From an uncultured bacterium (lineage in GTDB: Bacteria > Armatimonadota > HRBIN16): a stretch of DNA of 64,000 nucleotides. The notes beneath the pieces are model-generated. The model ran no database searches. It worked only from the letters and a program-made list of their open reading frames with translations, and was not told the DNA's origin. The translations under genes were made by a program, and so were the position numbers. The stretch is taken from assembly GCA_964650005.1 (NCBI GenBank), contig CAZYPZ010000002.1:138286-202285 (forward strand), written 5' to 3'. Every line of letters starts with the position of its first letter. Position 1 is the first letter of the stretch. Shown here piece after piece: positions 3,767-32,437 of this stretch.

Positions 3767-5785
3767 ATGTATTCGCCCTGGATCGGGATCACACTGTGCA
3801 CAGCACTCGGTCTGATCATCACCTCGGGAGCAGATGCCGCGACGTATTACGTGAGCAGCTCCGTTGGAGATGATGCAAACAACGGACTGGCGGCCACACG
3901 GCGCGGGGCCAATGGCCCGTGGAAAACCCTCGCCCGCGCGTCACAAGCCAACTATAAACCGGGAGACAGACTGCTGCTACGTTGCGGCGATGTCTGGACC
4001 GATGCGCTGACGCTGCGGGATATGGGACGGCCCGAGGCGCCGATCACCATCAGCGCCTATGGCACGGGAGCCAGACCGGCCATTCATGGAAACGGAATGG
4101 CAGGCAGCGCCTGTATCACACTCGATCGGTGTGCGGGTTGGGCTATAAGGGGGCTGGAACTGGCCAATGCGCAGTTCGCTATACGCCTTGTTCTGGACTC
4201 CCGAACACGCACCGAATACACCGGGCTGTCCGTAATCGATTGCTTCATGAAGGACATCGCCAATCCTGCCTTTCCGAACGTGTTGGAACGCGAAGGCTCA
4301 AGACACGAACACCTGAGAAACATGGGTTGGGCAATCTACGCAGAGGGAGGGGGTTCACCTCAGGAGGTCAGGCTACGTCAGGTTACCATCCGAAACAACA
4401 CGGCGTTGTGGTGTCAGGGGTTTTACTTTCACGCCACCGGCCCGATCATGGGCGAAGATATTCACATCGATGGCAACACACTCGCACACAACAGCTACAA
4501 CGCCATCTACCATACAGGCGCTCGCCGATTTCATATCACGCGCAACGCGTTGCTGTATGGGTATCCCTGGGCAGCTCACCCCAACGGCGCCACTCAAGTG
4601 CTGGCGGGTGGACTGGAGGGTACGGCCGCCGAGCCCAACAGGGTAACACACAACGAGTTCGGATGGGGCGGCGACACGCCGGGAGCTCCAGACGGTTGCG
4701 CCTATGACTTCGAAGGAACCACGCATGGGGTTGTGTTCCAGCATAACTTCGTCCATAACAGCTCCGGTGAACCCATTCTCTTCATGGGCGGGTTTACCCA
4801 TACCGATCTTTTGTTCGATAACAACATATTTCGGGACTGCATCCGGTTCAGCACCCGTTGGCATCACTACGTGACGGTTTCGATGAGCAACACCGGCAAC
4901 GGTGTCTTCAGCAACAACCGGTTCTTCCTGGAGCCCCAACACGAAGCGTTCATGGCCAAACCGCCTTCGTTCACATTCACCAATAACGACGAGCGTGCGA
5001 CCGGTGCGTTCGTGGCGATGCCACAGGTCATCAGTCTGTCGCGTGATACACGAGAGCGCGTGTATACGCTGGCGTGCGCCACACCGAACGCTATCATGCG
5101 GTACACCACTGACGGCAGCCTGCCGGATGCATCCAGTCCAAAGGTCACCGGTCCCATCCGCATCACACGCTCGTGTGCGTTGAATGTGAAAGCCTTCCGA
5201 GACGGTATGCTGCCCAGTTACACCAACACGCTGGTGGTGGATTTACGCGATGGTGAAGCGAAGGGCCCCCGAGCAGTCGTCTCGACAACGGCTAATGCGG
5301 CTGCGCAGGACCGCGCACGCGCCACCCTGCAGGCTGTAACGGGCACCTTCAGCCTGGCGTTCTGGATTGCACCCGAGCGCGAACGACCCGTGACCCCTGA
5401 GACCTATACCGGCGTAACGGATACAGCCGGACAGGTGTTCGCACTGGAGCCGTTCGATACATCTGCACCAGGCAACACAGGGATCGCTGTATCAGTGGGA
5501 ACGAACGGCGTCAGCGTCTTCGAGACCGGCGCCGGCGACCGCCCCAGCCTTCTGGTATGCCCTGCCAAGATGCCTGGGTGGCATCATGTCGTAATCCTGG
5601 TCCGACAGGGTCAGCCGAGTGTTTACGTGGATGGGATATTCCAGAAGGCCGGTCACAAAAGTTTGAAACAGATGCATCCGTTGTTCCGATTGGGCGCATA
5701 TCCCGGACAGATGCGGGATGTGGCGGTATACGACAGACTGCTGACCGACGCAGAGATTCAGACATTGGCCGCCAAGCGTCGGTGA
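3767..5785 (+). CDS. Secreted right-handed beta-helix protein with chitobiase/Fn3-associated domain and C-terminal LamG-like domain
   Basis: AGGAGG RBS; signal peptide followed by ATYYVSSSVGDDANNG; beta-helix repeats; YTTDGSLP motif; WHHVVI...VYVDG...VAVYDRLLTDAEI (LamG-like). Confidence 0.7.
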   Translation: MYSPWIGITLCTALGLIITSGADAATYYVSSSVGDDANNGLAATRRGANGPWKTLARASQANYKPGDRLLLRCGDVWTDALTLRDMGRPEAPITISAYGTGARPAIHGNGMAGSACITLDRCAGWAIRGLELANAQFAIRLVLDSRTRTEYTGLSVIDCFMKDIANPAFPNVLEREGSRHEHLRNMGWAIYAEGGGSPQEVRLRQVTIRNNTALWCQGFYFHATGPIMGEDIHIDGNTLAHNSYNAIYHTGARRFHITRNALLYGYPWAAHPNGATQVLAGGLEGTAAEPNRVTHNEFGWGGDTPGAPDGCAYDFEGTTHGVVFQHNFVHNSSGEPILFMGGFTHTDLLFDNNIFRDCIRFSTRWHHYVTVSMSNTGNGVFSNNRFFLEPQHEAFMAKPPSFTFTNNDERATGAFVAMPQVISLSRDTRERVYTLACATPNAIMRYTTDGSLPDASSPKVTGPIRITRSCALNVKAFRDGMLPSYTNTLVVDLRDGEAKGPRAVVSTTANAAAQDRARATLQAVTGTFSLAFWIAPERERPVTPETYTGVTDTAGQVFALEPFDTSAPGNTGIAVSVGTNGVSVFETGAGDRPSLLVCPAKMPGWHHVVILVRQGQPSVYVDGIFQKAGHKSLKQMHPLFRLGAYPGQMRDVAVYDRLLTDAEIQTLAAKRR

Positions 5786-5829
5786 CACCTACTGAACGTC
5801 AGCGATTCCGTATGGACTGAGAAAAGCAG

Positions 5830-5863
5830 ACACGCACCGGACCCCTGAGGGTCCGGTGCGTGT
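5830..5863. terminator. Perfect 15-bp hairpin between convergent genes; probable (bidirectional) intrinsic terminator
   Basis: ACACGCACCGGACCC-ctga-GGGTCCGGTGCGTGT; on the minus strand it is followed by CTGCTTTTC, downstream of rpmB. Confidence 0.8.
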
Positions 5864-5884
5864 TCAGCACGGTGCTGGATGGGG

Positions 5885-6100
5885 TTATACGGCGCGGGTT
5901 ACCTTGCCTGCTTTGATACAGCTGGTACACACGCGTATACGGCTAGGTTTTCCGTTCACCAGAGCCCGCACGTTTTGCAGATTGGGCTTCCACACCCGCT
6001 TGGTGCGCTGAGCGCGCAGCGCCCAGGCTCCCGAGTGCCGGTGGCGGATATTCTGGCCGTGCTGCACCCCTTTACCGCAGATGGCGCATACATTGGCCAT
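5885..6100 (-). CDS. rpmB: 50S ribosomal protein L28 (Zn-ribbon C+ form)
   Basis: [11 protein letters not shown]...[14 protein letters not shown]...[14 protein letters not shown]; GGAGGT RBS before ATG 6100. Confidence 0.95.
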
Positions 6101-6214
6101 GATCACTGTACCTCCAACCGGTTTCGCCGCAGACGGCGTACGGTATCGCCGTCTGACGTGCGTCTGGACGATTCTCCGAGATGAATCGGACCGTCCGTGT
6201 GTTCAGGCGTCCGG

Positions 6215-6598
6215 TCAGGCGATCTTGACGGTGGCGCCTTCGGCTTCGAACTTGCTCTTGATCTCTTCGGCTTCGGCCTTGGAAACACCCTCTTTGACCG
6301 GCTTGGGAGCGGACTCGACGAGTTCCTTGGCTTCCTTCAGGCCCAGCGATGTGAGTTCGCGCACGACCTTGATCACGTTGATCTTTTTCTCGCCGGCGGA
6401 CTCGAGGATCACGTCGAACGTGGTCTTCTCTTCGACGGGAGCGGCTTCGGCAGCCGCGGCGACGGGCATCGCACCCATCATCATGGGAGCGGCGGCGCTG
6501 ACGCCAAACTCTTCCTGGAGCGCCTTGACGAGCTCGTTCAGCTCCAGCACGGACATGTTCTTGATCTCTTCGATCAGTTGTTCTTTGGTGAGAGCCAT
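6215..6598 (-). CDS. rplL: 50S ribosomal protein L7/L12
   Basis: [23 protein letters not shown]...[10 protein letters not shown]...[25 protein letters not shown]. Confidence 0.98.
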
Positions 6599-26236: not shown

Positions 26237-27160
26237 ATGCGCAGACCCACCATGCCACACGACCAGAGTGGCAGACCCATGCCCGTCAAGCCGGTGATTC
26301 AACGCAGCGTATCGGCCCGTGTAGCCGTTGCCCAGATCTGGCAACCCGGTCCCGGCGATTCACGCAGTGCTGTCGACCTGATGCAACCGGCGCTGGATGA
26401 GCTGAAAACGCTTCAGCCCGATTTGGTGGTGTTCCCCGAATATCACCTGGGCTGGGTGCGTTTGGGCGATGGCGCCTTCGCGCAAGCCCAGGAACTCGCC
26501 CGTCGGTATGACACCAATCTGGCGGTTGGTGCATTGGAGATGTTGCCGGGGTACGATCCTGCGCGGCCCTGTTTTGACCAGCCGGGCAAATATGCCAACA
26601 GCACGTTTCTTTTTGACCGCCGCGGACATCTTGTGTGCAACTATCACAAGGTGCATCCCGCTGTGGGCGCTTCATCCCCGTACAACTGGCCGCCTGATGC
26701 ACAAGATCTGGAGTATACCATGCGGTGTGGCGCCGTGTTTCCGGTAGTCGACCTGGATGTTGCCAGGGTGGGCCTGATGACCTGTTATGACGGCTATTTT
26801 CTGCCTGTGTTCGACATACTGAGTCTGAAGGGCGCCGAGATCATCATCTGGTGCAATGGCCGGGGGGATATCGAAGATTATATCGTCCGAACTGCCAGCC
26901 ACCTCACCTGTACAGCGATTGTGGCTTCCAATCACAGCCACGGTGTCGGAGCGGCCATCTGTGACTTCCCGGGGCGGATGCTGGCGCGTTCTACGGAAGC
27001 CAGAGACCAGGTGCTGTGCGCCGAGATCGATCTGAAACAGTTGCGCCGTCATCGCAGGCATCTGCGTATGTTCCACCAGCGACGGCCGGAGCTGTACCGC
27101 GACGTCTCCCGGCCCTGGCGCCCGCAACTGAACTATCCGCAGATACCCATGGATGAGTGA
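26237..27160 (+). CDS. Carbon-nitrogen hydrolase (nitrilase superfamily)
   Basis: Catalytic triad contexts VVFPEY, YHKVHP, MTCYDG; AGGAGG RBS. Confidence 0.88.
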   Translation: MRRPTMPHDQSGRPMPVKPVIQRSVSARVAVAQIWQPGPGDSRSAVDLMQPALDELKTLQPDLVVFPEYHLGWVRLGDGAFAQAQELARRYDTNLAVGALEMLPGYDPARPCFDQPGKYANSTFLFDRRGHLVCNYHKVHPAVGASSPYNWPPDAQDLEYTMRCGAVFPVVDLDVARVGLMTCYDGYFLPVFDILSLKGAEIIIWCNGRGDIEDYIVRTASHLTCTAIVASNHSHGVGAAICDFPGRMLARSTEARDQVLCAEIDLKQLRRHRRHLRMFHQRRPELYRDVSRPWRPQLNYPQIPMDE

Positions 27161-27181: not shown

Positions 27182-28216
27182 TCAGGGATTCACGATGATC
27201 TTGTTCCGATCGGGTGTTCCCATGACCCGGATCGCCTCGTGGATATCCTTTAACGGGAAACGATGCGAGATGATCGCCTCGGTGTCGACCAGATCGGTCT
27301 CCATCAGGCGGATGGCGCGTGTCATGGCTGTGGGTGTGGTGCCGAAACTGGCATCCATCCGACCTTCCAGAAAGTGTGTCAGGCCGCCGTCCAGTGAGAA
27401 TGATTCGTGGGTGGTGATGCCGAACACGTTCCAGCGGGTACCTCTTCGGCGCAGATCCACCATCAGCTGGACGGCCTCGATCGGGCCGGCGGCTTCCACG
27501 ATCAGGTCTGGCCCGTCGGGCATAATGGCATAAAGAGCCTCTCGGATGTCGCTTTGTGACGGATCGAGGGCAGCGGTCGCGCCTAGGCGCATCGCCTGTG
27601 CGCGCGCATATGGGCTGCTGTCGATCGCCACCAGCCGGGCCGCTCCCGCAGTGCGGGCAACCATCAGACACAGCAGTCCGATACTGCCCACGCCGATGAT
27701 CACCACATCGTCGCCCACCTGCATCTGGCTGTATTGGATGACCCCCTTCCAGGCGCCGGACAGCGGTTCGGTCAGCGCGGCGGCATCGAACGAGATGCCG
27801 GCGGGTTTATGAAACAGGCACTCGTCTTTGGTGAGCATATATTCGGCGAAAGCTCCTGGGCGCACATCGGCCGGTCCGTCTCCGCCGGTCACAAACGAGT
27901 GGGCGCAGTAGTGTGTATTGCCGACCCGGCAGTGCGCACAGCGTCCACAGTAGCCGGAGGGCTGTACGATCACCGGGTCGCCCTCCTTGACGTGGCTCAC
28001 CGCCGGCCCCACCTCATGCACGATCCCGCTGGGTTCATGGCCAACGATGCATGGAAACGTCACGTTCGTCCGGATCCCGCGGATCGCCTTGTAATCGGTG
28101 GCGCAGATACCGCAGGACACAATCCGGACCACCACATCGCCCGGCTCCGTGGCGCGGGGGATCGGCACATCCTCCAGTTCCAATCGGTCAACCGCGTGTA
28201 ACACCGCCGCCAGCAT
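27182..28216 (-). CDS. Zn-dependent (MDR) alcohol/polyol dehydrogenase
   Basis: CGICATD, GHEPSG, CGRCAHCRVGNTHYC, IGVGSIG; AGGAGG RBS before ATG 28216. Confidence 0.9.
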   Translation of the reverse strand: MLAAVLHAVDRLELEDVPIPRATEPGDVVVRIVSCGICATDYKAIRGIRTNVTFPCIVGHEPSGIVHEVGPAVSHVKEGDPVIVQPSGYCGRCAHCRVGNTHYCAHSFVTGGDGPADVRPGAFAEYMLTKDECLFHKPAGISFDAAALTEPLSGAWKGVIQYSQMQVGDDVVIIGVGSIGLLCLMVARTAGAARLVAIDSSPYARAQAMRLGATAALDPSQSDIREALYAIMPDGPDLIVEAAGPIEAVQLMVDLRRRGTRWNVFGITTHESFSLDGGLTHFLEGRMDASFGTTPTAMTRAIRLMETDLVDTEAIISHRFPLKDIHEAIRVMGTPDRNKIIVNP

Positions 28217-28337
28217 CGTGCGCCTCCTGATGGGTTTATTGATAAACATTTCGATACAGCGTGTTACCAGTCCTGCTCCGATACGCCGTCATGGTTACAA
28301 TGAAGTGCGGAACCACATCACAACACACTAGAGGCGT

Positions 28338-29612
28338 ATGAACACACGACGTACGGCGGTGGTGATCGGCTCGGGACCGGGAGGGCTACTGGTCGCCTGT
28401 CTGCTGGCGCAGTCCGGTTATGCGGTCACGGTGCTGGAACGGCTGGACATCCCGGGCGGCCGGTTCACCCATATCGATTTCGAGGGATACGCGGTGCCCA
28501 CGGGCGCGTTTCATATGCTGCCTGGCGGACCGGTGGGGCCTATCGGCCGCTGTCTGCGGCATTTGGGAATCGATCTGCCGATGCGGGTACTGGAACCGTC
28601 GATGATGGTTCACCGAGACGGCGCCTGTTGGCCGTTGAATGTCGACCGACCGGGACGCACCGGTTTCCGTGCTGCGGCCGGCTTGACAGATGGACGGGCG
28701 CTGAAGTGGCGGTTTCTGAAAAACTCGATGCTGGCGATGCTGGGCAGCCCGGTGCGCGTGGGCGCACTGGTGGACGGGCTGGACGCCGACGGGACCGCAT
28801 TGAGACTGTATAACCATCTGACGGAATTCAGCCTGGGCGCCACGGTATGGCAGGTTCCGTTAGGGTATAAATTGCGGTCGTTGCGGGTGCAGCGGTTCGG
28901 ACGTGAAGCGATGCTGTTGGGCGGGAACAAGTCGTTGATCGATGCGCTTTGCGCCCGGCTGCGGGAGATGGGCGGGGTGCTGCAGCTGGGCTGCGGCGCC
29001 AGCCGGATCGCGGTGGAACGGTCCCGAGCCGTGGGCGTGGTTGATGAGAGCGGCGCCCTTCATGTTGCCGATGTGGTGATCTGTACGGCGGGCAGTCAAC
29101 GGGCGGTCCAGCTGCTCGGTGCGCACTGTCCGCAGTGGATGCGCGACATGACCAACCGGCTGACTCCCTTCTGGGGGGCGGCCTGGTCCATCCGATCCGA
29201 CCGGCCGCTGCAGCGGTACGCCACGGTGGATATTCCGTTACGCTTGAACCGGATTTCGGGCATCACGGCGGTATCGCTGCTGGCGCCCGATCTCTGTCCC
29301 AAGAACCACCATTATTCGCTGGCTTATCAGCGACTTGACCCCGAAGAGCCGTTGCAGCGTCAGCTGGATGAGGCACGCGAGGAGCTGCTGGATTGGCTGC
29401 CGACGGGTGCGGATCCGTTCCACCTGGCTACGTATGTCGGCGAGCATCCGGGTGGTCTGGCCGATTTGTCACCCCGACTGGTGAACCGGCTGCCATTGCG
29501 TATGCCGGATATTTCGGGGCTGTACTTCGGCGGCTACGAAGGTCGTGTATACGGTGTGGCCGCCGAAGTGACCGGTGAAGCGGCGCTTCGAATATGGAGA
29601 ATGCTGCGATGA
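28338..29612 (+). CDS. FAD-dependent oxidoreductase, phytoene-desaturase-like
   Basis: Rossmann motif VVIGSGPGG; VLER...GGRFT...TGAFHMLPGGPVGP; GGNKSLIDAL. Confidence 0.75.
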   Translation: MNTRRTAVVIGSGPGGLLVACLLAQSGYAVTVLERLDIPGGRFTHIDFEGYAVPTGAFHMLPGGPVGPIGRCLRHLGIDLPMRVLEPSMMVHRDGACWPLNVDRPGRTGFRAAAGLTDGRALKWRFLKNSMLAMLGSPVRVGALVDGLDADGTALRLYNHLTEFSLGATVWQVPLGYKLRSLRVQRFGREAMLLGGNKSLIDALCARLREMGGVLQLGCGASRIAVERSRAVGVVDESGALHVADVVICTAGSQRAVQLLGAHCPQWMRDMTNRLTPFWGAAWSIRSDRPLQRYATVDIPLRLNRISGITAVSLLAPDLCPKNHHYSLAYQRLDPEEPLQRQLDEAREELLDWLPTGADPFHLATYVGEHPGGLADLSPRLVNRLPLRMPDISGLYFGGYEGRVYGVAAEVTGEAALRIWRMLR

Positions 29613-29824
29613 GCGCACAGATCGACCGCGAGCGCTGTGCCGGCTGCGGAGCCTGCCGGCTTATCTGTCCGACCCGGGCGATCTTTCGGTTGGAATTGGC
29701 CTATACGGTCGCGCCGGAGCGTTGTGTACGCTGCCGGAAGTGCATCGGCGTGTGTCCCGTGGGCTGCATCGGGCTTGCGGACGAGAATGCGGCCGCCACA
29801 CCGGGGCAAGCTTCAGAGCAATGA
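29609..29824 (+). CDS. 2x[4Fe-4S] ferredoxin
   Basis: CAGCGACRLICP and CVRCRKCIGVCP; ATGA overlap with the oxidoreductase stop. Confidence 0.88.
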   Translation: MSAQIDRERCAGCGACRLICPTRAIFRLELAYTVAPERCVRCRKCIGVCPVGCIGLADENAAATPGQASEQ

Positions 29825-29834
29825 ACCGCATGGT

Positions 29835-31781
29835 TCACTTTGCGGTCAGCGTTCGGCGCACGCATTCCCTCAGGTCGCTCATCGAGAACGGTTTTTGCAA
29901 ATATCCATAAGGCGTCAGGCTGTGTATATGACGCATTACGTCGGTGAGGGGATATCCACTGATGATGATGACGGGCAGTTGCGGGGCCAGATCCTGCAGC
30001 CGTTGCAGGGTGACGTCGCCTGACATACCCGGCATACGCATATCCAGCAGCACCAGTCCGATTTCGTCGAGGTGTTCACCGGCAAGGCGCAGCCCTTCAT
30101 TACCCGAGTCAGCTGTCAATACCCGGTATCCGAACGTTTCCAGCATTCGCCGGGTTGTTTTCAGCACTTGAGGTTCATCGTCAATTACCAGAATGGCCTG
30201 CGAGGTGTCTGTCACATCGGCTGATCTCACCGGTTCCGGGCGATACAGCGGCAGCATCAGGCGCACGGTAACCCCTTGTCCGAGTGTACTTCGCAGACAA
30301 ATCGCGCCATGGTGGCTGCGCATAATCCCCAAAGTGGCGGAGAGGCCCAGTCCGCGTCCTTGGAACCGCGTGCTGAAAAACGGTTCGAATACACGGGTTG
30401 CCGTTTCCGGGCTGATGCCGGGACCGGTATCTGCAACTTCAATCAGCGCATATTCACCCGGTGTGGCGCCCTCGGCATAGGTGCATTGGCTCAGTTGTTC
30501 GGCGGTTAAGTGATGGCTGCAAAGTTTTACGGTGACCGTTCCGCCGCACTCGGAACACGCCTCAAACGCATTGGCAACCACATTGATCAACGCCTGTTTG
30601 ATATGGTTCGGGTCACCGGTGACCGTCAGCTCTTCGAGCAGATATTCGGCCTGCAGGACCACGCCCGGAGGCGCAGCGCGTGTCAACAGATCGAGCGTCT
30701 GTTCGATCAGGGGGCGCAGGGCGACACGTGCTTCCGTCATCCTGCCGGCTCCGGCATATGCCAGCAGCTGTTTACACAATTCTGCGGCTCGTTCTCCGGC
30801 CTGGTGGATCTCCTGAACATGTGACTGCAGGGCGTGGTGTTCCGGCAGGGCGCAGCGGATCAACGCGTTGTTTCCCAGGATTATCGTCAGCAGGTTGTTG
30901 AAGTCATGCGCGACTCCACCTGCCAGCACGCCCAGGCTCTCCAGTCGCTGGGTCTGCTCCAGGCGCTGTTCCGCCGCTTTCTGCATCGCCAGGGCTTCAT
31001 GCAGCGCGCTGATATCGGATATCAACGCCAGCGCGCCGGCATACCGACCGTCTTCGGTGAATACGGGCGCGGTGTTGATCAATGTATACACCGGGTGTCC
31101 GTCATTATGCTGAAACACGAACTCATGCTGTTCGGCAATACCGGATTGCCGACGCTGCACATTCGCAGCTGCCTGAGCGCGTTCCGACTCGGACATGAAC
31201 GTGAACAGGTGTTGGCCCATCATCTGCTCCGGCGTGTATCCCAACATCTCCGCCATGCGCCGGTTGACATATGTGGTGCAAGAGTGTTCGTCAATCTCCC
31301 ACACGCCCTCCCCGCATGTTTCTACCAGTCGGCGGTATCGGGCTTCACTCTGCCGCAGCTGATTCTCCGCCTCGGCGCGCTGGATCACCTCCCGTTCCAG
31401 CTTCGCCACTGTCTGGCGCAACGAGGCGGTGCGCTCCGCCACAACCTGTTCCAACCGTTCGTTCTGCCGTTCCAGCAGCCTGCGATGCTGGCGTTCCTCC
31501 AGGATCAGCGCCAGCATCTGGACCGCGTTGATCACAACCGCCTGCTCATCCGAAGGGCGCTGCCCGAATGACGGAGCCACGCACACGGCACCGAAGCAGG
31601 TCCGGTTCGTTCGCACGGGAATGACACCTGGTCCCGAAACGGGATCGGTGACATAACGATAGTCGTATCCGGGATCTCCCGCGTTCAGGGAGTCCACGAA
31701 AAGACGTATGACGGCGTCCGAGTCATCGATCTGACTCAACGACACCATCAACAGAAACAGATCATGGGTCAGGCGTTGCAC
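29835..31781 (-). CDS. Hybrid sensor histidine kinase (N-terminal GAF-like region, PAS, HisKA, HATPase, receiver)
   Basis: PAS (YVNRRMAEMLGY), GVAHDFNNLL, VADTGPGI, FFSTRFQGRGLGL, receiver ILVIDDE...VLLDMRMPGMSG. GTG start at 31781 after an AAAGGGG RBS. Confidence 0.9.
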   Translation of the reverse strand: MQRLTHDLFLLMVSLSQIDDSDAVIRLFVDSLNAGDPGYDYRYVTDPVSGPGVIPVRTNRTCFGAVCVAPSFGQRPSDEQAVVINAVQMLALILEERQHRRLLERQNERLEQVVAERTASLRQTVAKLEREVIQRAEAENQLRQSEARYRRLVETCGEGVWEIDEHSCTTYVNRRMAEMLGYTPEQMMGQHLFTFMSESERAQAAANVQRRQSGIAEQHEFVFQHNDGHPVYTLINTAPVFTEDGRYAGALALISDISALHEALAMQKAAEQRLEQTQRLESLGVLAGGVAHDFNNLLTIILGNNALIRCALPEHHALQSHVQEIHQAGERAAELCKQLLAYAGAGRMTEARVALRPLIEQTLDLLTRAAPPGVVLQAEYLLEELTVTGDPNHIKQALINVVANAFEACSECGGTVTVKLCSHHLTAEQLSQCTYAEGATPGEYALIEVADTGPGISPETATRVFEPFFSTRFQGRGLGLSATLGIMRSHHGAICLRSTLGQGVTVRLMLPLYRPEPVRSADVTDTSQAILVIDDEPQVLKTTRRMLETFGYRVLTADSGNEGLRLAGEHLDEIGLVLLDMRMPGMSGDVTLQRLQDLAPQLPVIIISGYPLTDVMRHIHSLTPYGYLQKPFSMSDLRECVRRTLTAK

Positions 31782-32437
31782 GTGTCCCCTTTCGGCAGAA
31801 ACTGCGGCGCATGCTCTTTCAGCCAGACATCCGGTTCGCGGTAGAGCGGATTCTGCAGGATCACGCCGCCATGGATCAGCCACGGATGGGTCTGTAACAC
31901 TCCCATAATCATCTCACCGGAGAACCGGCGTACGTCATACAGACAGATGCTGATCCAAGGCTTTCCGGGAATGAAGTAGTTGAGTCGGGATTCGTAGACC
32001 ATCAAGTGTTCCACACCGGGTATCCGCTCCAGCGCCCAGCTCATCTCCGCGGTGGCGCGGATGTTGCGCGGACCGTTCTGTTGACTGGCTGAAAAGAAGC
32101 CCTGAAGGTTGGTGTCCATGTCGGTCGGTGAGAACACGCCGCTTGGATAGTAGACCTCTCGGGCGGTTGACACATGGAACAAGTGAGGATCGTGCGTATC
32201 GTTGGCGTGGTCCGGATACAGTCGGGCGTACGTGGCCTGGAACTGGTCGATATCCTGTTCTACCGGCACATACAGTTGCAGATCGCCGTCTCTGGCTCCG
32301 CGATGCAGGTAGGGGAACAGGATATCGTTCCACTCTTGATCGGATTGGTAGAGACCGCACAGGTGTAATCCCCAGTTACACACCCAACCGCCAAATCCCA
32401 GATCGACTTCGGGCTGATCGGACGTCTTGAGATGCAT
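31769..32437 (-). CDS. Standalone MEDS (DcmR-like sensory) domain protein
   Basis: GLHLCGLY...FPYLHRGARDG, RATAEMSWAL, YESRLNYF, ICLYDVRRF...VLQTHP; AGGAGG RBS. Confidence 0.85.
   Translation of the reverse strand: MHLKTSDQPEVDLGFGGWVCNWGLHLCGLYQSDQEWNDILFPYLHRGARDGDLQLYVPVEQDIDQFQATYARLYPDHANDTHDPHLFHVSTAREVYYPSGVFSPTDMDTNLQGFFSASQQNGPRNIRATAEMSWALERIPGVEHLMVYESRLNYFIPGKPWISICLYDVRRFSGEMIMGVLQTHPWLIHGGVILQNPLYREPDVWLKEHAPQFLPKGDTCNA

Follow-up and report, generated by a model that had tools for sequence, protein, structure and literature searches.

Two archaeal proteins of solved structure, 3KA7 from Methanosarcina mazei (NESG MaR208, 'oxidoreductase') and 3NRN from Pyrococcus furiosus (PF1083), have stood in the PDB since 2009–2010 as structural-genomics entries with no assigned function. 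In the literature that we searched, they figure only as templates in the modelling of phytoene desaturase (PDS) and, for 3NRN, as a GDI/REP-like fold. Here, we describe a bacterial member of their family that is encoded together with a small ferredoxin at positions 28,338 to 29,824 of a 64,000-nucleotide stretch of DNA from an uncultured bacterium of the Armatimonadota, lineage HRBIN16 (hereafter 'the window', meaning this whole stretch: contig CAZYPZ010000002.1, positions 138,286 to 202,285 of the forward strand, assembly GCA_964650005.1). What is new here is a ferredoxin partnership that spans two domains of life, together with a bacterial branch in which the order of the two genes is reversed, in a family that is structurally known and functionally blank. 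That literature gave no description of the family's function or of the ferredoxin pairing, although one may have been published elsewhere; 'MA1492', the number that we estimated for the Methanosarcina acetivorans orthologue by counting genes from that of geranylgeranyl reductase (GGR), likewise gave no literature match.

The closest described precedent for such a pair is GGR itself, a prenyl-chain flavoenzyme encoded beside its own small ferredoxin (MA1484/MA1485; TK1088/TK1087). According to reviews, the GGR of M. acetivorans requires the adjoining ferredoxin, and Fd-2 of Thermococcus kodakarensis is co-transcribed and co-purified with GGR (PMC6401487). GGR has the p-hydroxybenzoate-hydroxylase fold (TIGR02032), whereas the window protein has the CrtI/PDS fold, and only the dinucleotide-binding motif is common to both. 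Homology with GGR was rejected: that family is absent among the top NCBIfam matches of the window protein, and Foldseek returns structures of the CrtI, PDS and protoporphyrinogen oxidase (PPO) type. Judged by this likeness in layout, the window pair and the GGR/ferredoxin pairs are best regarded as functional analogues, not homologues, and the GGR pair as the best working model.

A second comparison is with MA0127 of M. acetivorans, the hydroxyarchaeol-forming hydratase, which is a phytoene-desaturase homologue acting on precursors of the digeranylgeranylglyceryl phosphate (DGGGP) type. Its characterization is reportedly due to Mori et al. in 2015. MA0127 comes from a methanogen and, like the window protein as we read it, is a CrtI-superfamily flavoprotein whose substrate is an isoprenoid chain and which is not a carotenoid desaturase.

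The window locus comprises the following features, of which the two genes overlap in an ATGA arrangement (ferredoxin ATG at 29609–29611, flavoprotein TGA at 29610–29612):

28338..29612, plus strand: flavoprotein of 424 amino acids (aa), dependent on flavin adenine dinucleotide (FAD), with a CrtI/amine-oxidase fold, of the 3KA7/PF1083-type family (Pfam, profiles, AlphaFold2/Foldseek, tree)
29609..29824, plus strand: clostridial-type 2x[4Fe-4S] ferredoxin of 71 aa (two CxxCxxCxxxCP motifs; Pfam Fer4 51.4 bits, Fer4_21 41.7 bits)
28330..28334, plus strand: AGAGG, a possible Shine-Dalgarno sequence with a spacing of 3 nt to the flavoprotein ATG, so short that it is weak evidence
29596..29599, plus strand: Shine-Dalgarno sequence GGAG, 9 nt 5' of the ferredoxin ATG and within the 3' end of the flavoprotein gene

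3KA7 and 3NRN are members of the same family as the window flavoprotein. It matches 3KA7 with an E-value of 2.7e-33 over residues 7–373 in a single-sequence search and of 5.8e-117 with the family profile, which also finds 3NRN (E 3.8e-85). An AlphaFold2 model built from a 21-sequence alignment (pLDDT 93.1, pTM 0.92) returns 3KA7 (TM 0.87) and then 3NRN (TM 0.79) at the top of a Foldseek search; the runners-up are rice PDS, gamma-carotenoid desaturase, and PPOs, and the next match, PDS 5MOG, reaches a query-normalised TM of 0.81, but its E-value is weaker by 14 orders of magnitude. The likeness to the two solved proteins thus extends to full-length sequence similarity, fold, and the signature GGRFT-x10-[TS]GA[FL]H, and the Methanosarcina orthologues of 3KA7 also adjoin a small 2x[4Fe-4S] ferredoxin. 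In contrast to 3KA7 and 3NRN, to which its identity is 25–31%, the window protein has a bacterial host and a ferredoxin that lies downstream, not upstream. Sequences this close are rare: in an exhaustive HMMER search, only 18 of 1.84 billion cluster representatives reached E<1e-30.

The N-terminus, MNTRRTAVVIGSGPGGLL, holds the GxGxxG dinucleotide-binding motif: the FAD motif lies in the stretch VVIGSGPGG (GSGPGG being residues 11–16), with E34 in addition, and NAD_binding_8 scores 47.1 bits. Pfam matches the protein to NAD_binding_8 and Amino_oxidase. Residues 40–68 read GGRFTHIDFEGYAVPTGAFHMLPGGPVGP and contain the motif GGRFT...TGAFHMLPGGPVGP; the fuller family signature, GG[RK][FY]T...G[FY]x[VIL][PS][TS]GA[FL]H, is present at residues 40–59. 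A preliminary description of the locus, made from the sequence without database searches, had placed the GGRFT motif after the FAD motif, where it does lie, and had given eight residues as the spacer that follows it; the spacer from GGRFT to TGAFH is in fact ten. The same description had judged this N-terminal signature to be methanogen-like and not CrtI/CrtD-like, and this judgement stands, the nearest relatives beyond the protein's own bacterial clade being from Methanosarcinales and other archaea. With the CrtI/CrtD/CrtN family (TIGR02734), the window protein has the FAD-binding N-terminus and the overall fold in common. Unlike CrtI, which carries GF-x-FD-x-GP, it has G[FY]-x-[VIL]-[PS]-[TS]-GA at that place, and its score against TIGR02734 is 59.7 bits versus a curated cut-off of 238.1, over an aligned stretch of residues 7–56 only. 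CrtI/CrtD membership was rejected on this score.

The cluster motifs of the ferredoxin, CAGCGACRLICP and CVRCRKCIGVCP, are those of a clostridial-type 2x[4Fe-4S] protein, and all eight cysteines are kept in an alignment of the bacterial and archaeal partner ferredoxins. Coordinates, cysteine motifs, and Pfam matches together bear out the preliminary claim of an ATGA-coupled ferredoxin. In a second genome of the same genus, the flavoprotein orthologue has 88% amino-acid identity, the arrangement is identical, and the ferredoxin orthologue begins at the equivalent start codon. Compared with this genome, the flavoprotein has a ratio of non-synonymous to synonymous substitution rates (dN/dS) of 0.067 and the ferredoxin one of 0.125, with dS near saturation; both genes are real and under purifying selection. 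A promoter and terminator scan of the locus gave nothing useful.

The partnership recurs well beyond this genus, and we regard this as our firmest finding. The 2x[4Fe-4S] ferredoxin lies immediately 3' of the flavoprotein gene at 11 of the 12 bacterial loci that could be assessed, four of the pairs having an ATGA-type overlap; the paired loci include those of the window, its congener, six further Armatimonadota metagenome-assembled genomes (MAGs), one Thermodesulfobacteriota MAG, and metagenomic contigs. The archaeal loci (n=71, the archaeal members of the best 80 of 163 relatives) place a ferredoxin of ~53 aa immediately 5' of the flavoprotein gene in 67 cases, 49 of them with a 4-nt overlap, and one further archaeal locus has a Cys-to-Ser variant of the ferredoxin. 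This upstream arrangement is also found in Helarchaeota, Archaeoglobaceae, and the contig of relative P0030. Gene order is therefore inverted between the domains, ferredoxin before flavoprotein in archaea and flavoprotein before ferredoxin in bacteria. Other CrtI-like paralogues served as controls: at ten of their loci, in M. acetivorans, in a Methanolobus genome, and in further Armatimonadota, no 2x[4Fe-4S] motif lies within ~1.5 kb; the genome of the window holds only 19 such motifs in 3.88 Mb. Because the motif is so scarce, is absent beside the paralogues, and yet recurs beside this family at 11/12 and 67/71 loci, the adjacency of flavoprotein and ferredoxin is not due to chance. The linkage suspected from the single locus is thus conserved, and we therefore treat the pair as a two-component unit.

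Three relatives depart from the simple pair in ways worth recording. The P0030 contig (locus L111, 3823–6812) has three consecutive genes, the first for a ferredoxin, the next for a 3KA7-like flavoprotein, and the last for another, CrtI-like flavoprotein of 496 aa, the two flavoprotein genes overlapping by 17 nt; the tandem could represent a two-step pathway. An Armatimonadota MAG (CAWGNL010000057; locus L020, 4935–6449) has a flavoprotein gene split by a frameshift into 4935–5900 and 5791–6276, with the downstream ferredoxin intact, so that the gene is a pseudogene or else was misassembled. At loci L119/L120 (2499–5366), which belong to P0093 in a Thermococcales-like subclade, a CTP_transf_like gene of 155–165 aa ends 4 nt before the flavoprotein gene, and an AA_kinase gene follows.

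Relatives were sought with the pattern G[FY][AQ][VIL][PS][TS]GA[FL]H in one genome per GTDB species (596 Gb), which gave 179 matches, 163 of them confirmed as relatives. Among the best 80 of these 163, nine are bacterial (seven from Armatimonadota and two from Thermodesulfobacteriota) and 71 archaeal, the latter from Methanosarcina, Methanolobus, Methanococcoides, Methanomethylovorans, Methanimicrococcus, Methanoperedens, and Hydrothermarchaeota. Carriage in Armatimonadota is patchy (8/401 genomes and 6/207 genera) and, within the window's own family, is confined to the window's genus, while 45 of 46 sampled Methanosarcina genomes have the orthologue.

A tree of 73 sequences (IQ-TREE, LG+C20), with CrtI and MA0127-type paralogues as the outgroup, places the flavoprotein within the 3KA7/PF1083 family and apart from both kinds of outgroup sequence. 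The 21 bacterial-type sequences form one clade (support 100/99), whose base is joined by P0030 and P0038 (100/97). This assemblage is sister to a clade of 44 rows that holds all Methanosarcinales and Hydrothermarchaeota, the 67 rows together having support of 98/93, and a trio containing Helarchaeota branches outside them. Every sequence outside the bacterial clade for which a source is named is archaeal, from Methanosarcinales (including Methanomethylovorans), Methermicoccaceae, Archaeoglobaceae, Halobacteria/Halorutilales, Methanofastidiosia, Hydrothermarchaeota, or Helarchaeota. With the outgroup root, the bacterial clade of Armatimonadota and Thermodesulfobacteriota nests inside archaeal diversity. 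Because the family is rare in bacteria and broad in archaea, and because the bacterial clade is nested, we consider it likely that the module reached bacteria from archaea by a single horizontal transfer. The preliminary description had raised the possibility of horizontal sharing with archaea, which fits both the patchy distribution and the tree position. The separation from the MA0127-type paralogues speaks against the link to hydroxyarchaeol that it had drawn.

That link also fails on direct comparison. In the Methanosarcina genome that we take to be M. acetivorans C2A, the window protein matches the 3KA7-like gene (1,764,676–1,765,947) with 131 bits (E 4e-41). It matches the presumed MA0127, a CrtI-like gene of 462 aa at 153.0–154.4 kb to which we give that label from its genome position, with 18 bits, the alignment covering only ~60 N-terminal residues around the FAD motif. 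The candidate MA0127 is thus a distant paralogue of the window protein; it lies in a separate clade with a sister paralogue of 484 aa, and no ferredoxin adjoins either gene. Orthology with MA0127 was rejected on the 18 versus 131 bits and the different clades.

These results bear on the idea that the window encodes a bacterial MA0127 orthologue whose substrates would be archaeal-type ether lipids produced by its host. The two proteins do have superfamily and archaeal affinity in common, and MA0127 is a real, characterized enzyme. Against this stand the scores and clades just given and the host's gene content: its genome holds no homologue of PcrB or geranylgeranylglyceryl phosphate (GGGP) synthase and no GGR above the cut-off. 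These two absences led us to reject an archaeal ether-lipid pathway for the host, and they make an archaeal lipid an unlikely substrate there, contrary to what the preliminary description had allowed, and an MA0127 orthologue of this kind is scarcely credible.

What, then, might the pair do? We propose a translationally coupled, self-contained module of a monomeric FAD flavoprotein with the CrtI/PDS/PPO fold and a dedicated low-potential 2x[4Fe-4S] ferredoxin. The ferredoxin would pass electrons to the flavin of the flavoprotein, and the reduced flavin would saturate a C=C bond in a polyprenyl chain joined head to tail; candidates for this chain are the side chain of a quinone and the chains of polyprenol carriers or of other isoprenoid lipids. 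A polyprenyl substrate is suggested because characterized members of the fold bind long isoprenoids or similar hydrophobic compounds, and reduction because the GGR/ferredoxin pairs give a precedent for a dedicated electron supply to a prenyl reductase. Since M. acetivorans shows no match to SQS_PSY (phytoene/squalene synthase) in our control panel, the archaeal orthologues must act on head-to-tail prenyl compounds and not on C40/C30 head-to-head carotenoids. We put the chances that the pair is such a ferredoxin-driven, C=C-reducing flavoenzyme for polyprenyl chains at about even.

The fold would also suit the opposite reaction, in which the enzyme acts as a desaturase or oxidase that adds double bonds to an isoprenoid or other substrate and the ferredoxin is the electron acceptor. 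Most characterized relatives of the fold (PDS, CrtI, CrtN/CrtD-type enzymes, and PPO) are indeed dehydrogenases. However, the electron acceptors of known CrtI/PDS enzymes are quinones or O2. With their very low potentials, ferredoxins of the clostridial 2x[4Fe-4S] type are ill suited to accept electrons from C–C desaturation, and the family occurs mainly in strict anaerobes whose isoprenoids are saturated; we therefore consider desaturation very improbable.

Several points weigh against polyprenyl reduction or against parts of the wider account. The proposed chemistry is drawn by analogy from the fold and the partner, and a search for catalytic residues singled out none, most of the alignment columns that the two clades have in common being glycines or positions that bind FAD. 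A conserved third gene, sought in the bacterial neighbourhoods, was not found there beyond the pair, so that the bacterial context, in which only the pair itself is common, gives no clue to the substrate. The ferredoxin is not universal: none adjoins the PF1083-like representative P0093, in which it differs from the window protein, or two of the three Hydrothermarchaeota loci. The exception among the assessable bacterial-type loci (L012, metagenomic, relative P0016) has a polytopic membrane protein of 385 aa in the ferredoxin's place. As for the transfer, the tree is rooted through long outgroup branches and support for the family node is only 95/67, which is why we grade its direction as likely and no higher. 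Finally, some CrtI-family enzymes, among them CrtISO, CrtY, and probably the MA0127 hydratase, catalyse redox-neutral reactions for which their FAD must be reduced, so that a ferredoxin is no proof of net reduction.

The membrane protein of L012 (7281–8438) has no Pfam match, and its gene overlaps the flavoprotein stop by 4 nt; it may be an alternative partner of the flavoprotein.

From the requirement for reduced FAD comes the most serious competitor to a reductase, namely a redox-neutral isoprenoid isomerase, cyclase, or hydratase in which the ferredoxin only holds the FAD reduced, with no net use of electrons. The CrtI superfamily does include such enzymes with the same fold, among them CrtISO and CrtY and also the MA0127 hydratase with its DGGGP-type precursors. 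Yet neither the candidate MA0127 nor its 484-aa sister paralogue has the adjoining ferredoxin, and a dedicated ferredoxin that is stoichiometric, coupled in translation, and kept across two domains fits a continuous demand for electrons better than occasional activation. We regard a redox-neutral enzyme as unlikely, and as distinctly less probable than ferredoxin-driven reduction of a polyprenyl chain.

Genomic context in the archaea points in more than one direction. The pair of Methanosarcinaceae lies between cofG/cofH/cofC, which serve synthesis of the F420 head group, and the fpo (methanophenazine-reducing) operon, and the lipid GGR, the GGR ferredoxin, and a Tes-like radical S-adenosylmethionine (radical-SAM) gene are within 5–8 kb of it; at the M. 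acetivorans locus (L109, G075:C1:1756000–1775000), the pair is ~7 kb from these three. The cof genes flank the pair in 55–60/74 archaeal loci, and the combined cof/fpo synteny, seen in 47–60/74, is found in Methanosarcinaceae only, the cof synteny being absent at the loci of Methanoperedens, Hydrothermarchaeota, Helarchaeota, and Archaeoglobaceae.

The nearness of the lipid GGR, its ferredoxin, the radical-SAM gene, and the fpo operon favours an isoprenoid substrate. The cof neighbours, and the presence of PPO and amine oxidases within the fold, favour a non-isoprenoid one, such as an intermediate of the F420 pathway (e.g. dehydro-F420-0), a tetrapyrrole, or an amine. An F420 role sits poorly, however, with a synteny limited to Methanosarcinaceae, with the occurrence of family members in Thermococcales, a group for which F420 synthesis is not known, and with the gene content of the host. 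The window's genome has no CofC homologue, and its two CofH-like matches are more simply explained as MqnC/MqnE of the futalosine pathway, which they probably are. An F420-related role was accordingly judged unlikely, on the restricted synteny and the lack of CofC in the host, and we find a non-isoprenoid substrate as a whole improbable, more so than a redox-neutral isoprenoid enzyme and less so than a desaturase.

For the window's host, if the pair does reduce polyprenyl chains, it may act on those of menaquinone or of polyprenols, or else on carotenoids. These last are kept as candidates because the genome has a CrtB–CrtI cluster elsewhere. That no other carotenoid gene lies near the pair, as the preliminary description had remarked, is confirmed: the sole phytoene synthase and the sole full CrtI of the genome (386 bits, TIGR02734) are on another contig, C7, where a carotenoid cluster at 71551–77252 comprises phytoene synthase (CrtB), a membrane protein of 392 aa that looks glycosyltransferase-like by sequence, a CrtI-like protein of 504 aa, and CrtI. 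Membership of the flavoprotein in this cluster was rejected, the cluster being outside the window. A stand-alone 2x[4Fe-4S] motif lies ~1.6 kb from the cluster, at about C7 69811–69942 on the minus strand.

The immediate neighbours of the pair in the window are of other kinds. Downstream, the ferredoxin gene faces a convergent gene for a PAS/HATPase/receiver hybrid kinase of 682 aa (29835–31883, minus strand); the two stops are only 10 nt apart, and no terminator-like hairpin was found between them (29824–29835). Upstream, an MDR zinc dehydrogenase (27182–28249, minus strand) is divergent from the flavoprotein across a spacer of 88 nt and adjoins a nitrilase-family hydrolase (26237–27160, plus strand). 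The occurrence of the dehydrogenase, the nitrilase-family gene, and the convergent kinase beside the pair is common only to the MAG of the same genus, and because their arrangement is kept no further than this, the dehydrogenase and the nitrilase-family gene are probably unrelated to the pair.

The Methanosarcina orthologue of a family whose function has stayed blank since its structures were deposited adjoins genes for a lipid reductase, F420 biosynthesis, and fpo. The present analysis turns what would be annotated as 'phytoene dehydrogenase-like' into a testable two-component enzyme, one whose ferredoxin is nearly always present, which has probably crossed into bacteria as a pair, and which is distinct from the hydroxyarchaeol hydratase. 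To our knowledge, several archaeal isoprenoid saturation steps still have no assigned enzyme. It is possible, though we hold this more tentatively than the reaction itself, that the pair represents a new enzyme class, a CrtI-fold, ferredoxin-dependent prenyl-chain reductase that ranges from Asgard archaea and Euryarchaeota to a few transfer-recipient bacteria and performs one of these unassigned steps, with the side chain of methanophenazine or menaquinone and the alpha-unit of polyprenol/dolichol carriers as candidates. If the pair does perform such a step, its small bacterial version would offer a convenient biochemical handle and would serve as a marker of the transfer of lipid or quinone chemistry from archaea to bacteria.

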